IMG/VR virus record: IMGVR_UViG_3300009180_002437
Direction: 5' to 3' (one strand)
Source: a virus
Lineage: Duplodnaviria > Heunggongvirae > Uroviricota > Caudoviricetes
DNA: 48,266 nucleotides
A program made the position numbers and the translations under genes. This document shows, in pieces, positions 3,545 through 14,930 of this stretch. Below the pieces are notes generated by a model. It was not told the DNA's origin. It saw only the letters and a program-made list of their open reading frames with translations, and made no database searches. Position 1 is the first letter of the stretch, and each line of letters opens with the position of its first letter.

Positions 3545-4600
3545 ATGGCACACTTTTTAAAATCAGGTAATACATACAAAGTCGCTTCAGAAGAAGCAAT
3601 GGATATTCATTCTACATTGCCAGCTGGCAACTATGTAATCAAGATTGACATGTTTGAAAACTTGTACCTTGAACACATTGATAGCTTTACGGTATCAGGT
3701 AAGATTTACGGTGATACACTTAAGAATACAGATCGTATTATCAACACATTCTGGGAACGTCCTAGTTCTACTGGCGTAATGCTGACAGGAGAGAAAGGGT
3801 CGGGGAAGACATTACTAAGCAAAAAGATCAGCATTGAGCTGGCTAAGCAAGAGGTACCAACCATTGTTATTAACGATGCGTTTACAGGCGAGAAGTTTAA
3901 CACACTATTACAAACTATTAGTCAACCTTGTGTTATCTTGTTTGACGAGTTTGAAAAGGTCTATGACAAAGACGAGCAAGAAGCTATTCTTACCCTACTG
4001 GATGGAGTGTACTCAGGTAAGAAATTGTTTATTCTAACTTGTAATGACAAGTGGCGTGTTGATCAACATATGCGTAATCGTCCTGGTCGTATTTTTTACA
4101 TGATTGACTTTACTGGGTTGTCACAAGAATTTATCGTTGAATACTGCGAAGATAATCTTAAACACAAGGAACACATTGAACGTATTTGTTCATTGACTAA
4201 CTTGTTCGCTGAGTTTAACTTTGACATGCTTAAAGCACTTGTTGAAGAAATGAATCGCTACAACGAAGCTCCGCAGGACGCAATGAAAATTCTAAACACC
4301 AAGCCTGAATTTGATTCAGGATGCCGGTATGATATTTCATTGATTGTTGAAGGTAAAGTACTTGATGTTACAACTTATCCTGAAGTTTTTGAAGGTAACC
4401 CACTTGCCAATACTGTTCAGATTGAGTATGATGGGGAGAAGGACGAGGATGGTGATAGCACATGGACACGCAATCGCTTTAGCCCACAAGATTTAGTCAA
4501 GGTGGATAACAACGGTGCCAGATTTGTTTTTGAGAACAACGGCATTCGGTTGATGCTAACTCGCATTAAGGCAAAAACTTATAACCCATATGCGTTTTAA
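3545..4600 (+). CDS. AAA+ family ATPase
   Basis: Walker A GEKGSGKT, Walker B ILFDEFEK, sensor/Arg finger TCN...RPGR. Confidence 0.9.
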   Translation: MAHFLKSGNTYKVASEEAMDIHSTLPAGNYVIKIDMFENLYLEHIDSFTVSGKIYGDTLKNTDRIINTFWERPSSTGVMLTGEKGSGKTLLSKKISIELAKQEVPTIVINDAFTGEKFNTLLQTISQPCVILFDEFEKVYDKDEQEAILTLLDGVYSGKKLFILTCNDKWRVDQHMRNRPGRIFYMIDFTGLSQEFIVEYCEDNLKHKEHIERICSLTNLFAEFNFDMLKALVEEMNRYNEAPQDAMKILNTKPEFDSGCRYDISLIVEGKVLDVTTYPEVFEGNPLANTVQIEYDGEKDEDGDSTWTRNRFSPQDLVKVDNNGARFVFENNGIRLMLTRIKAKTYNPYAF

Positions 4601-5113: not shown

Positions 5114-5191
5114 GGTGAGGTGGCAGAGTGGTCCATTGCACTGGATTGCAAATCCGGAAAACCGTCGGTTCGACTCCGACCCTCACCTCCA
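5114..5191 (+). tRNA. tRNA-Cys (GCA)
   Basis: Cloverleaf, U73 discriminator, CCA. Confidence 0.92.
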
Positions 5192-5214
5192 ATTGTTGTA
5201 TTTTAGCACAGTAG

Positions 5215-5243
5215 TTGACAGTTAATTCAACTACAGCTATAAT
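5215..5243 (+). promoter_or_regulatory. sigma70-type promoter upstream of large ncRNA
   Basis: TTGACA-N17-TATAAT. Confidence 0.85.
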
Positions 5244-5286
5244 GTTTGTATAGTAAGAAATGCAGTAAACGTTCTTTAAAAAACAG

Positions 5287-5376
5287 ACGCAATATTGAAG
5301 TGTATTACACGAACTAGTCCCGAATTAGCAATAGCATTGCAGAGGTCATATCGTGTAATACACTTCAATATTGCGT
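5287..5376. repeat. long-hairpin element E1 (ATATTGAAG family)
   Basis: Perfect 26-bp inverted repeat 5287-5312/5351-5376 with a 38-nt loop. Confidence 0.9.
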
Positions 5377-6090
5377 AAGCAAAAAGTCCACGGCAACCTA
5401 ATCAGTGCCTAGTCTGAGCCCAGACGATGAAGTAGCTGTGATGGCTACGGGTGGTTCGAGCAAGGGTCTACCTCTGGTAACGGAGATGAAGAATCTGCTC
5501 CAGCGAAAGCTGCGGTCTAACCTAACCGGCGTTTGCACACGAGAGTTCTCCTTGGTCGGTGAAGCGGATGGAAGGCATAGTTAGTCAACTTCTCTATGCT
5601 ATAGTTACCGCCGCAGGGAGAAAGCACTTAGTTGTTATTAGTTGTATTGTTTTGGAAAATTCCAGTGTTCACTTGGAAAATGCACAGGCGATGGATCCTC
5701 CGTCTAGCTAGCGCGATCTAAACTGTTGCCTGAAACGAAAGCAAGATCAGCATTGGCCAATGCCCTTGTATAAGAGTTCAGCGATAAAAGCAAACGACAA
5801 TAGGGTTATTGTTGTCCATAACGAGACAATACAACTAATGACAATGGTGGCTATAGTATAATAGCAGATAGCATTCACTTATAGGAATCCCGGCGTCCCT
5901 AGCCGTTATTAACAGGGCGTGAATTAACTCCACGATAAAGTTAAGGGTGCTTACGATCTACCTTAGAGTCCCTCTGTCGGGAGCCTGAAAAAATCGTAGG
6001 GTGTTGCTGAACATGCCCATACTCATAGAGAATAATCAGACGGACAGGGTAGACAACTCCGGTAGGGGCCGAAGGGATTCGGTAGCCTAC
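5377..6090 (+). ncRNA. large ornate structured ncRNA (GOLLD/ROOL size class, family unassigned)
   Basis: ~700 nt without an ORF in a tRNA island. Many GNRA hairpins and long-range helices: 5632-5653/5823-5844, 5466-5472/6048-6054, 5530-5536/5790-5796, 5622-5629/5945-5952, 5776-5782/6006-6012. Confidence 0.75.
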
Positions 6091-6163
6091 ACCATATTGA
6101 AGTACATTCTGGTGGTATAAATTTGATAAACCAGGAAACGAGCGGAGTGTATTTCAATATGGT
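6091..6163. repeat. long-hairpin element E2
   Basis: 20-bp stem ACCATATTGAAGTACATTCT / GGAGTGTATTTCAATATGGT. Confidence 0.85.
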
Positions 6164-6210
6164 AACCCTGTCCAAGTGCAATGGTCACACGCCCTTGCTT
6201 GGATGGACTG

Positions 6211-6319
6211 TTACCATATTGAAGTGTATTAAACGCCAACAAGAAGAAGGCGGTCCAGCGTCAACTGGGCGAAGTTGCGTTTGACGGTGCAAGAGATTTA
6301 ATATATTTCAATATGGTAA
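6211..6319. repeat. long-hairpin element E3
   Basis: 23-bp stem TTACCATATTGAAGTGTATTAAA / TTTAATATATTTCAATATGGTAA. Confidence 0.85.
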
Positions 6320-6329
6320 TAAAGAATTA

Positions 6330-6407
6330 GGCCAATGGGACTGCATGGTGTGGTCGCCCGCCTGTCACGCGGGATATCGATGGGATCGTTACCCATATTG
6401 GTCGCCA
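6330..6407 (+). tRNA. tRNA-Asp (GTC)
   Basis: CCCGC-CTGTCAC-GCGGG anticodon arm, G73, CCA; atypical T-loop ATCGTTA. Confidence 0.88.
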
Positions 6408-6982: not shown

Positions 6983-8458
6983 ATGTATCATGGAATAATT
7001 TTATGTGGCAGTAGAAACGACCTTTCCGGTAGAAATATTGCTGGATATAGATTACGTACCGCTGCTGAAAAATTCGGATACAATAACTTAGTTATTGATT
7101 GTGCTACTGCAATGACGGAAGCAGAACTAGAACTAGTACTCAGCAACGTTATTACAGATAAAACATTATTTTTGGGCGTCAGCACAGTTTGGCTAGATCG
7201 TCCACATAATGGACATGCCGACATTGAATGGATTAACGAAGATTTTTTTAATAGAATTCGTGCCAAACATCCAAAATTAAAAATTGTCGCAGGTGGTAAT
7301 GGTATATTACGAATGCCAGGTGCTCGTGGTCTTTATGACGCAGCAGATTGGCATATTGGTGGATTTAGCGATGACAGTTTTCCTAGATTTCTAATGTTAT
7401 TAGAAGGCAAGACAGGACATCAGTTAAAGTATTTTATTGACAGCAATGGCAAAAAAACGGTGGATAGTAATAAATTCCATCATATCGCAAATCCAGATGA
7501 TATAGAAACTGTATTAAAACCAGAAGATAACTTTCTTAGTCATCAACCAATACCATTGGAAGCCAGCAGGGGGTGTATTTTTAGATGTGCGTACTGTACT
7601 CATCCGTTTCAAGGAGCAAAAGATTACGAATCTTACATGAGAACTCCTGAAAGCATAAGCAACGAACTTCGTCGCAATTATGAATTGTTTGGTACTACCA
7701 GATATTCATTGATGGATGATACATTCAATGATAGTGTGGAGAAGTTAAATAGACTTGAGCGAGCCATAGAATTAGCAAAGATACCCAACTTTGAATTTCA
7801 ATGTTATCTTAAACCAGAGTTACTAGTAACCAAACCCGAAATGATTCCGCAGTTGTTGCGAATGGGGCTAGTAGGTGGATTTGTTGGAATAGAAAGCATG
7901 AACAACCATGCTAGAAAAGTTATGAATAAAGGAATGAACATTGAGAAGGTTCTACATGCACTTAATATGTTAACTAGCGGTAGTAATCAAGTTAAATTAA
8001 GTGCAGGCTTTATTGTAGGACTGCCGGGCGACACAATAGATGATTCATTTAAAACAGCCGAGTTTTGTAAAAATAATCCAAACTTATTTAGAACCTGGCA
8101 GTTTAGTGCCCTTGGAATCTATACTTATAATGACATTGAAAAAGAAACAACATTAATGAGTGCCCTGGAACGTGATCCAGAAAAATATGGTTATACTGTT
8201 GATCGAAAGCCAGGCGAAAATAGTGCATGGAAGAATGAATTTATGACATCTGAGCAGGCATTTGATGCAGCATTCAAATTACTCAAAGACTCGGCCGGAG
8301 TTGTTCGGTGTGGTGGCTGGCTAATTGGCTCAGCGTGGCACAATGGAGAATCGGATTTCGATATTGAACATAAAACACGAGATCAATTAAAATTAGATGG
8401 TCGCGGTAGACAAGTAGCCCGAGACCGTGCTATACTTACAGTTAAGAAGTACACTTAG
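6983..8458 (+). CDS. B12-binding (class B-like) radical SAM enzyme
   Basis: N-terminal Rossmann-like domain with IVAGG; EASRGCIFRCAYC; DDTFN; GIES; GFIVGLPGD. Confidence 0.85.
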   Translation: MYHGIILCGSRNDLSGRNIAGYRLRTAAEKFGYNNLVIDCATAMTEAELELVLSNVITDKTLFLGVSTVWLDRPHNGHADIEWINEDFFNRIRAKHPKLKIVAGGNGILRMPGARGLYDAADWHIGGFSDDSFPRFLMLLEGKTGHQLKYFIDSNGKKTVDSNKFHHIANPDDIETVLKPEDNFLSHQPIPLEASRGCIFRCAYCTHPFQGAKDYESYMRTPESISNELRRNYELFGTTRYSLMDDTFNDSVEKLNRLERAIELAKIPNFEFQCYLKPELLVTKPEMIPQLLRMGLVGGFVGIESMNNHARKVMNKGMNIEKVLHALNMLTSGSNQVKLSAGFIVGLPGDTIDDSFKTAEFCKNNPNLFRTWQFSALGIYTYNDIEKETTLMSALERDPEKYGYTVDRKPGENSAWKNEFMTSEQAFDAAFKLLKDSAGVVRCGGWLIGSAWHNGESDFDIEHKTRDQLKLDGRGRQVARDRAILTVKKYT

Positions 8459-8469
8459 TAAAAATCAAC

Positions 8470-8553
8470 GGAGGTGATGTTCCAACGGTGGGACAGGAGA
8501 CTGTAAATCTCTGGCACTTGTGCAGGTAGGTTCGATCCCTACCACCTCCACCA
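8470..8553 (+). tRNA. tRNA-Tyr (GTA)
   Basis: Cloverleaf with long variable arm, CCA. Confidence 0.92.
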
Positions 8554-8559
8554 AGTAAT

Positions 8560-8634
8560 GCTGCATTCGACTTCTGGTGAGGTCATCACCCTTTCAAGGT
8601 GACCAGACGGGATCGTAACCCGTATGCAGTACCA
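8560..8634 (+). tRNA. tRNA-Glu (TTC)
   Basis: TCACC-CTTTCAA-GGTGA; T-loop ATCGTAA; CCA. Confidence 0.9.
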
Positions 8635-11655: not shown

Positions 11656-11778
11656 ATGAAAGAATATATAATTGAATACCAAACAGAACCAGAAGCAGTT
11701 AGAGAATTTCATCATACATCAATTAAGTTTTTAAGTGGATTGATCGTATTGAGTTTTATACTTTACCTGTTTCATTAA
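11656..11778 (+). CDS. small membrane protein (40 aa)
   Basis: MKEYIIEYQTEPEAVREFHHTSIKFLSGLIVLSFILYLFH with a C-terminal hydrophobic helix; the longer track ORF overlaps tRNA-Gly. Confidence 0.5.
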   Translation: MKEYIIEYQTEPEAVREFHHTSIKFLSGLIVLSFILYLFH

Positions 11779-14850: not shown

Positions 14851-14930
14851 TATTATATTGAAGCACATTTAAGTAGGCATGCCAACGCTAGGTCTTATCG
14901 GACGTAGCCAGAGTGTGTTTCAATATAATA
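14851..14930. repeat. long-hairpin element E4
   Basis: 20-bp stem TATTATATTGAAGCACATTT / GAGTGTGTTTCAATATAATA between tRNA-Lys and tRNA-Arg. Confidence 0.85.

Follow-up and report, generated by a model that had tools for sequence, protein, structure and literature searches.

What does a phage keep in some 700 nucleotides (nt) of its tRNA island that seem to code for no protein and are dense with hairpins? We addressed this question for positions 5377-6090 of the IMG/VR record IMGVR_UViG_3300009180_002437. The window, i.e., the whole stretch of 48,266 nt that was analyzed, is part of an uncultured virus record of 59.7 kb with an estimated completeness of 17%, and has 25 tRNA genes plus one permuted transfer-messenger RNA (tmRNA). 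The 714 nt in question are bounded by tRNA-Cys (5114-5191) and tRNA-Asp (6330-6407). A first, sequence-only reading had taken them for one ornate RNA of ~700 nt, held together by long-range helices and a pseudoknot, that would belong to the GOLLD/ROOL class or be a new giant RNA. The non-coding and structured character stood up to the comparison with related phages; the unity did not, as the parts of the stretch occur independently of each other. These parts (called A, B, and C/D hereafter) evolve as units of their own; each has a fold supported by covariation, and none has a catalogued family. In our view a freshwater jumbo phage is likely to have in 5215-6407 an RNA operon that is not translated, with three RNA genes (A, B, and C/D), putative processing stems, and a tRNA-Asp.

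The longest open reading frame (ORF) over 5200-6330 has 59 amino acids (aa) and spans 5405-5584. We rejected a coding reading of it because relatives carry frame-breaking indels. The GC content is 44-48% across the stretch, compared with ~36% in the flanking genes. Relatives were gathered by pattern scans and by collecting contigs that code for the neighbouring AAA ATPase, and were then aligned; the L-numbers below denote the related phage contigs compared with the window. The relatives of the window are lake or freshwater phages of 340-367 kb. A scan with the hairpin-arm 16-mer gave mostly chance matches and recovered L018 by luck, and the neighbouring radical SAM gene, used as bait, led to a single distant locus, L002, whose record has no nucleotide homologue. 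Searching GenBank phages with 5200-6320 by blastn gave no match.

In the alignment of the relatives, the 714 nt fall into four pieces, A (5377-5627), B (5628-5878), C (5879 to ~6049), and D (to 6090), which are combined in several ways. The order A-B-C-D is found in the window, L067, and L068. The commonest layout is A-B'-C-D (L070/L072, L084, L102/L104, and L106), where B' is a cassette of ~190 nt, unrelated to B, that takes the place of B in most relatives. Module C is absent from the A-B'-D architecture (L069 and L082/L098) and A from B'-C-D (L018/L091 and L086). In L194, A and a divergent B are followed by a sequence that resembles tRNA-His when read by eye and receives no call from ARAGORN. 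Four tRNA genes stand between the A-like and the C/D-like RNAs of L197 and L210, and the order is reversed in L206, with the C/D-like RNA first. Hence, since A, B, and C/D occur independently in relatives, the stretch is not one RNA of ~700 nt.

Module A turned out to be an expanded member of a family of RNAs from phage tRNA arrays. A divergent copy identified by nhmmer in L151/L153 shares two blocks with it (AGCGGRTGGAAGG, a gap of 4-34 nt, and CTATARTTACCGCC), and this two-block motif matches 24 IMG/VR contigs. At ~190 nt, the short forms of the family occupy almost the whole interval from one tRNA gene to the next, leaving only 0-6 nt free; for example, in L192 the tRNA-Gly ends at 7881, the A-like RNA occupies 7882-8074, and the tRNA-Cys starts at 8081. 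As the short forms abut tRNA genes, tRNA end-processing alone would release the A-like RNA. We drew by hand a structure of 45 pairs (P0 to P6) on 10 short forms, in which 97.8% of the cells are paired and 21 of the 45 pairs have changed on both sides. The covariation score is 0.455, compared with 0.175 in shuffles (0 of 500 reach the observed value) and at most 0.094 when partners are slid. A covariance model built from these 10 sequences, called R1, from which the window-type sequences were excluded, matches module A of the window with 64 bits (E 8e-18) and end to end, over model positions 1-191.

Accordingly, the window has P1-P6 in order, together with all four invariant family motifs (GGGUGGU, GGCGYUGGCAAYRCGA, AGCGGRUGGAAGG, and CUAUARUUACCGCC). 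For ACCGCC, both GGUGGU and GCGG are candidate partners, with every position involved invariant, and positions 5600-5612 read CUAUAGUUACCGCC where the family-wide sequence is CUAUAAUUACCGCC. The module lies on the tRNA strand, as in the short forms, but between the long hairpin H1 and module B instead of between tRNAs, the tRNA-Cys being 186 nt upstream and beyond the promoter. It also lacks the kink-turn-type P6 hairpin of the short forms (UGAUGA...CUGAUG): P6 is GGC-AUAGUUAGUCAACUUCUCUAU-GCU in the window and GGC-GAAA-GCU in L067, L070, L102, and L106, and its length varies in L190 and L197 as well. In the long forms helix P0 is not sustained, with 70% of the cells paired. The expansion of the window (Table 1) comprises the two GNRA-capped hairpins described earlier, CTCTG-GTAA-CGGAG at 5472 and CAGC-GAAA-GCTG at 5501, and at the same site L191 and L204 carry unrelated two-hairpin inserts. 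Window-type copies of A are nearly invariant, with the first 89 nt identical in 10 contigs, while module C of these contigs drops to 75-80% identity (an estimate from the alignment) and the adjacent tRNA-Cys is only 73% identical to that of L018.

Searches for further members gave no match in 185,579 prokaryote genomes (family motif) or in 50,697 GenBank phage records (blastn with an A-like short form), and Rfam returned nothing for the short-form relatives L192 and L195. Among 80 loci around the ATPase gene of relatives at 55-63%, nhmmer and R1 found the family in L151/L153 only; R1 has no match in Microbacterium phage Pumpernickel, which among cultured phages is the nearest to carry the ATPase. 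The family is present in 2 of the 5 jumbo-phage relatives searched that are at least 99% complete. A-like RNAs very often stand directly before or after a tRNA-Cys, in at least six lineages (window 5114-5191/5377; L192, L195-L198, L197, and L210), which may reflect a shared ancestral gene order only. The invariant AUUACCGC of A is complementary to GCGGUAAU, which we take to be the sequence of the 530 loop of 16S rRNA; a match of 8 nt could be due to chance.

Module B is a folded core closed by a long stem. The stem had been described as a 22-bp helix (5632-5653/5823-5844); its existence is confirmed, and the pairing continues to a total of 24 bp, 4 of them G.U and none A.C. B is 100% identical in L067 and L068. 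When it is compared with the divergent copy of L194, 15 of the 68 predicted pairs have changed on both sides and none is broken, a count that comes from two sequences on which the structure itself was chosen. The segment that follows B, 5846-5878, would be a leftover from the 5' part of a tRNA-His plus a leader motif, because the same GGTGGCTATAGTGTAATGG opens the tRNA-His-like sequence found directly after B in L194; in L079, the leader motif lies 12 nt upstream of a tRNA-His. Other tRNA-like sequences that ARAGORN did not call were seen in L079 (10877-10948 and 11064-11150) and in the H1 and H2 loops of L018 (3020-3097), L067, and L068. One of them, 71 nt long, has a T arm and ends in CCA, another has a GUC anticodon loop, a duplicated CATAGGTCGCCA, and a start like that of module C, and the hairpin loops bear CAGGTTCGAATCCTG T arms.

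The C/D part has 50 predicted pairs. Across 9 sequences 98.2% of the cells are paired and 8 pairs are compensatory, and the covariation score is reached by 0 of 500 shuffles. Examples are UUA/UAA, which becomes UCG/CGA, and CCGAA/UUCGG, which becomes CUAGA/UUUAG with two compensatory pairs in D. Recognizable relatives of C/D occur in L197, L203, L206, and L210, and in L099 module D lies immediately 3' of a protein gene. The ACCA that follows D (...CCUAC-ACCA) already belongs to the next hairpin, H2, whose 5' arm begins with these four bases.

One might still have expected the modules to work together as domains of a single giant RNA (~700 nt) whose function is analogous to that of GOLLD or ROOL, with contacts such as that between the loops of B and C (GUUCAGC/GCUGAAC). 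A, B, and C/D are contiguous, with no intervening tRNA or promoter, and are jointly 98-100% conserved in three contigs. Furthermore, GCUGAAC is kept in a hairpin loop of C by the window, L067, and L068, L194 (divergent B, no C) has GTTTGGGC at the partner site, and L070, L084, L102, and L106, which have no B, read GCUGAU. However, GCUGAAC is also kept in L018, where B is absent, each part is found without the others, and A-like RNAs of ~190 nt stand alone between tRNAs.

The proposed long-range helices argue in the same direction. All the words are where they had been reported (GTCTACC at 5466, GGTAGAC at 6048, CGTTTGC at 5530, GCAAACG at 5790, AAGCACTT at 5622, GGGTGCTT at 5945, GTTCAGC at 5776, and GCTGAAC at 6006), but complementarities of this kind are at chance level: we counted 20 pairs of complementary 7-nt words at least 50 nt apart, compared with 12.8 +/- 4.6 in dinucleotide shuffles, and by our count ~13 of the 20 derive from the B stem alone. 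Compensatory changes are found within A, B, and C/D, and none above chance for the long-range set, since 91 and 163 of 500 shuffles reach the covariation values observed for the five proposed helices taken jointly in 8 sequences. The B stem is the sole helix of the set that is 100% paired across these sequences, and three of the four short ones are disrupted in relatives with no compensating change. T5534G and an inserted A, changes found in most relatives, disrupt CGTTTGC/GCAAACG in L067 and L068, where the partner is unchanged. GTCTACC/GGTAGAC loses two pairs (G5466C and T5467G) in L070, L098, and three metatranscriptomes, and AUCUACC (5956-5962) is a local candidate partner for GGUAGAC. The word at 5945 has a local partner within C that tracks its changes. 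Folded as a whole, the region has a modest z-score for the + strand (-2.3) and an unremarkable one for the - strand (-0.7), and most of the + strand signal is supplied by B (z = -4.73; A and C/D have -0.4 and -0.7, respectively).

The search of the whole window against Rfam 15 with cmscan gave nothing for 5377-6090 at the gathering score. With lax filters and E <= 10, the 4227 models produced only chance matches of microRNA type on the flanking hairpins of 5150-6400, and none to GOLLD, ROOL, OLE, HEARO, raiA, group I or II introns, RNase P, tmRNA, T-box, 6S, or SRP. Three of these had been considered as candidates in their own right and were dropped, with no Rfam match for any of them: the AAAGUCC of A resembles CR-I of RNase P RNA, whose P4 partner is absent; GGGUGG and ACCGCC are T-box-like, yet ~100 nt apart; the third was SRP RNA. 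Even a loose description of the GOLLD/ROOL class (more than 500 nt, co-inherited domains, and covarying long-range helices) does not fit the stretch. GOLLD is itself bipartite, sometimes with tRNAs in its linker (10.1101/2024.12.08.627333), which leaves a cooperative reading of A, B, and C/D with a low probability; overall, we regard a single giant RNA as unlikely.

The surroundings of the three modules resemble those of a transcription unit (Table 1). The promoter upstream is as perfect as first described, and both of its hexamers are kept in six related contigs, with a variable spacer. It is followed by a leader element whose core, GUUCUUUAAAAA (5271-5282), has a single occurrence in the window. 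The same core recurs 10-30 nt behind sigma70-like promoters, where it heads tRNA or RNA units, in 10 or more divergent contigs of phages (sites include L153:307 and 3288, two in L194, L197:2975 and 4425, L199, and L210:338). The boxA of rrn operons is UGCUCUUUA, and the boxA plus spacer of lambda nutL is CGCUCUUAAAAA (PMC2724277); CGUUCUUUA agrees with the former at 7 of 9 positions and is similarly close to lambda CGCUCUUA. The element may thus be an rrn-style antitermination signal for untranslated operons, as its resemblance to boxA suggests.

Long stems of one family accompany the modules. H1, the B stem, H2, and H3 have 21-26 bp and jointly 9 G.U and 0 A.C pairs; hence, they pair only as + strand RNA. 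The stem of H1 is kept in L067 and L068 through compensatory and G.U changes around an unrelated loop, and some of the replaced H1 loops of relatives have tRNA-like T arms. H3 is 97% identical in L018. A pairing of arms from adjacent hairpins that spans a module is conceivable as well (inverted repeats I4 and I5). The 47-nt spacer between H2 and H3 (6164-6210, + strand, CCCTGTCCAAGTGCAATGGTCACACGCCCTTGCTTGGATGGACTG; L018:3579-3625) is conserved in relatives, which insert or delete hairpin-plus-cargo units around it, with up to three extra cargo modules in L018 and L068.

Table 1. Features of the proposed RNA operon and a related stem (window positions).
Feature	Positions	Strand	Basis
sigma70-type promoter of the putative RNA operon	5215-5243	+	TTGACA, 17 nt, TATAAT; 12/12 positions
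boxA-like leader element ACGUUCUUUAAAAA	5269-5282	+	26 nt after the -10 hexamer
Long hairpin H1	5287-5376	+	26-bp perfect stem, 38-nt loop
Module A (phage tRNA-array RNA family, expanded form)	5377-5627	+	covariance-model match 5386-5626
Two-hairpin expansion of A (GUAA- and GAAA-capped), lineage-specific	5457-5513	+	57 nt, after invariant GGGUGGUUC; absent from short forms
Module B, 24-bp closing stem around a ~165-nt folded core	5628-5845	+	stem 5631-5654/5822-5845; folding z = -4.73
Putative junction remnant: fragment like the tRNA-His 5' part GGTGGCTATAGTATAAT and leader motif AGCAGATAGCATTCACTTATA	5846-5878	+	comparison with L194 and L079
Module C, multi-hairpin domain	5879-6049	+	closed by CCC 5889-5891/GGG 6047-6049 and CGUC/GACG
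Module D, hairpin GUAGG-GG-CCGAA-GGGA-UUCGG-UAG-CCUAC, then ACCA	6062-6094	+	kept in every relative
Long hairpin H2, H1 stem family	6091-6163	+	21 Watson-Crick + 3 G.U, no A.C
Long hairpin H3, same stem family	6211-6319	+	21 Watson-Crick + 2 G.U; folded 63-nt loop
tRNA-Asp (GTC), last gene of the unit	6330-6407	+	ARAGORN; next promoter-like site 6447 (promoter scan)
E4, fifth stem of the H1/B/H2/H3 family	14851-14930		stem comparison

With its promoter, boxA-like leader, long stems, and tRNA, the unit can be read as built like an rRNA operon. The consensus promoter and the leader would drive a single transcript of 5215-6407, whose cargo would be A, B, and C/D in tandem, three long hairpins of one stem family, and the tRNA-Asp. 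RNase III processing stalks are a feature of rRNA operons and of T7 early RNA. By analogy, the long stems are probably sites of RNase III processing: H1, the B stem, H2, and H3 would act as stalks where tRNAs no longer flank the modules, and their cleavage would yield separate stable RNAs from the precursor. The boxA-like element would recruit Nus factors of the host and thereby protect the transcript, long and untranslated as it is, from termination by Rho. The most speculative step is that the mature RNAs might act on the translation or tRNA machinery during infection, a role proposed because of the strict linkage to tRNA arrays and because the invariant GGGUGGU and GGUGGAAGG of A are complementary to the 3' ACCA of tRNAs. 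A more specific version, to which we give little credence, is that the A-like RNA binds tRNA 3' ends in trans through these two motifs, alone or in a particle with B and C/D, and captures, protects, or sorts the phage tRNAs. The T-box bulge and the P15 loop of RNase P pair in this way with the ACCA end of tRNAs, and the cages formed by GOLLD and ROOL are the model for such a multi-RNA particle.

Several points weigh against the operon. Modules that evolve separately can still cooperate, as the two parts of GOLLD illustrate (10.1101/2024.12.08.627333). RNase III cleavage and Nus recruitment are both suggested by resemblance only, and the boxA-like motif deviates at the conserved C of rrn boxA (GUU for GCU). 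Module A alone folds no better than shuffles, and its fold rests on the wider family because the window-type copies are too conserved to covary. In that family, an alignment of 24 distinct members to R1 (A8) has 97.1% of its cells paired and 29 of 45 pairs compensatory, values biased towards the pairs of the model to which it was fitted. As to expression, four lake metatranscriptomes have contigs that map to A (5364-5608), to B (5662-5825), to C (5898-6048), and to promoter-H1, and around half of the phage-specific contigs fall within 4.7-6.05 kb of the 20-kb stretch compared. They are short, of low depth, and without ends or strand, DNA carry-over is possible, and the runs were selected because they hold this stretch; they are thus supportive but weak evidence that the locus is expressed.

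Could the modules be parts of an mRNA instead? The cassette B' carries an AAGGA ribosome-binding site and a conserved ORF of 40 aa (MKNYV.EYQTE...LYLFH), which occurs at L070:6615-6737, L069:8763-8885, L018 ~2674-2796, and, as a paralogue, at 11659-11778 (+) of the window. The protein (MKEYIIEYQTEPEAVREFHHTSIKFLSGLIVLSFILYLFH in the window) has a hydrophobic C-terminal half, its sequence is kept across L018, L069, and L070, and a PHROGs search with it gave no significant match. Structured mRNAs with contacts between their 5' and 3' parts are typical of type I toxin genes, e.g., hok. Given that A-B'-C-D is the commonest layout, A might be a 5' leader controlling a membrane-type peptide of 40 aa and C/D a 3' stabilizer, both acting in cis as untranslated regions, with the window having swapped the ORF for B. 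However, the short-form A-like RNAs are flanked on both sides by tRNAs and not by ORFs, A has no downstream ORF in the window, L067, L068, and L194, the C/D-like RNAs of L210 lie between tRNA-Ala and tRNA-Met, and the ORF itself travels as a cassette within tRNA arrays, the paralogue of the window being located between two tRNA-Gly genes without A or C/D. This makes a small-protein mRNA an improbable source of the modules. Finally, the stretch might be taken for spacer DNA, or for what mobile elements and recombination have left behind, its hairpins being inverted-repeat remnants with no RNA function. This idea is the least credible of all and very improbable: the locus is indeed a recombination mosaic, relatives and the window alike have genes for HNH and GIY-YIG endonucleases in its vicinity, 5846-5878 resembles a tRNA-His remnant, and B is identical in three contigs, as in a recent acquisition, but A, B, and C/D show compensatory base changes, the stems deviate by G.U only, which shows that selection acts on the RNA of the + strand, conservation is much stronger in A than in the tRNA-Cys beside it and extends to the promoter and leader, and pieces of the stretch are found in four RNA libraries.

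Some observations concern the neighbourhood. The AAA ATPase adjoining the locus (3545-4600, + strand) is highly conserved, with 4868 relatives at E <= 1e-20. In Pumpernickel (L211, NC_073468.1 94195-95259) it has 55.6% identity and lies in the middle of a tRNA array, with an RtcB-like RNA ligase nearby. This suggests that the ATPase is tied to the biology of tRNA arrays. In an array of 42 tRNAs, L206, a phage that has both A-like and C/D-like RNAs, carries a tRNA predicted by ARAGORN with anticodon UUA (8492-8564, - strand), which reads the UAA stop and may be a suppressor tRNA.

The locus adds three structured RNAs with comparative support to the enigmatic RNAs of phage tRNA islands, namely RNAs C and D of T4, GOLLD, and ROOL; to our knowledge, a function has been established for none of the latter. 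The A family occurs in at least 24 uncultured phage contigs, yet it is absent from Rfam and from the GenBank phages (blastn) and prokaryote genomes (motif) that were searched. Its variants form a natural deletion series: the short form found between tRNAs, the long form with its inserted GNRA hairpins, and copies that have or lack B and C/D. Testable predictions on how phages make and process long untranslated RNA follow from the proposed operon, with its boxA-like leader, stems of RNase III type, and an arm starting with ACCA. The locus also calls for caution in genome scans, as several small RNA genes in a row, and not a giant RNA, can make up a long gene-free stretch of a tRNA island.

How does the unit compare with known systems? 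RNAs C and D of T4 have ~120-140 nt, against ~250 nt for A. They are non-coding, non-tRNA stable RNAs, encoded in the tRNA cluster of the phage and co-transcribed, with an unknown role (PMC3014915). The likeness, judged from the genomic setting (PMC3014915), lies with the short-form A-like RNAs, which fill a gap between tRNAs and could be released by tRNA processing; the modules of the window differ in being flanked by long hairpins and not by tRNAs. In GOLLD the 5' part varies, the 3' part is conserved, and the linker between them sometimes has tRNAs (10.1101/2024.12.08.627333). With GOLLD (RF01998) and ROOL (RF03087), the locus shares a phage tRNA-array setting, many GNRA-capped hairpins, and an unknown function, but neither covariance model matches, and the window has three RNAs of ~170-250 nt instead of one fold of more than 500 nt. 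An rRNA operon differs in its rRNA, which is lacking here, in the conserved C of boxA, replaced by U, and in its stems, which in the window are local hairpins with variable loops. What the two have in common is a strong promoter, a boxA-like element (GUUCUUUAAAAA compared with UGCUCUUUA and CGCUCUUAAAAA; PMC2724277), long stems that bracket the RNAs, and a tRNA in the transcript.

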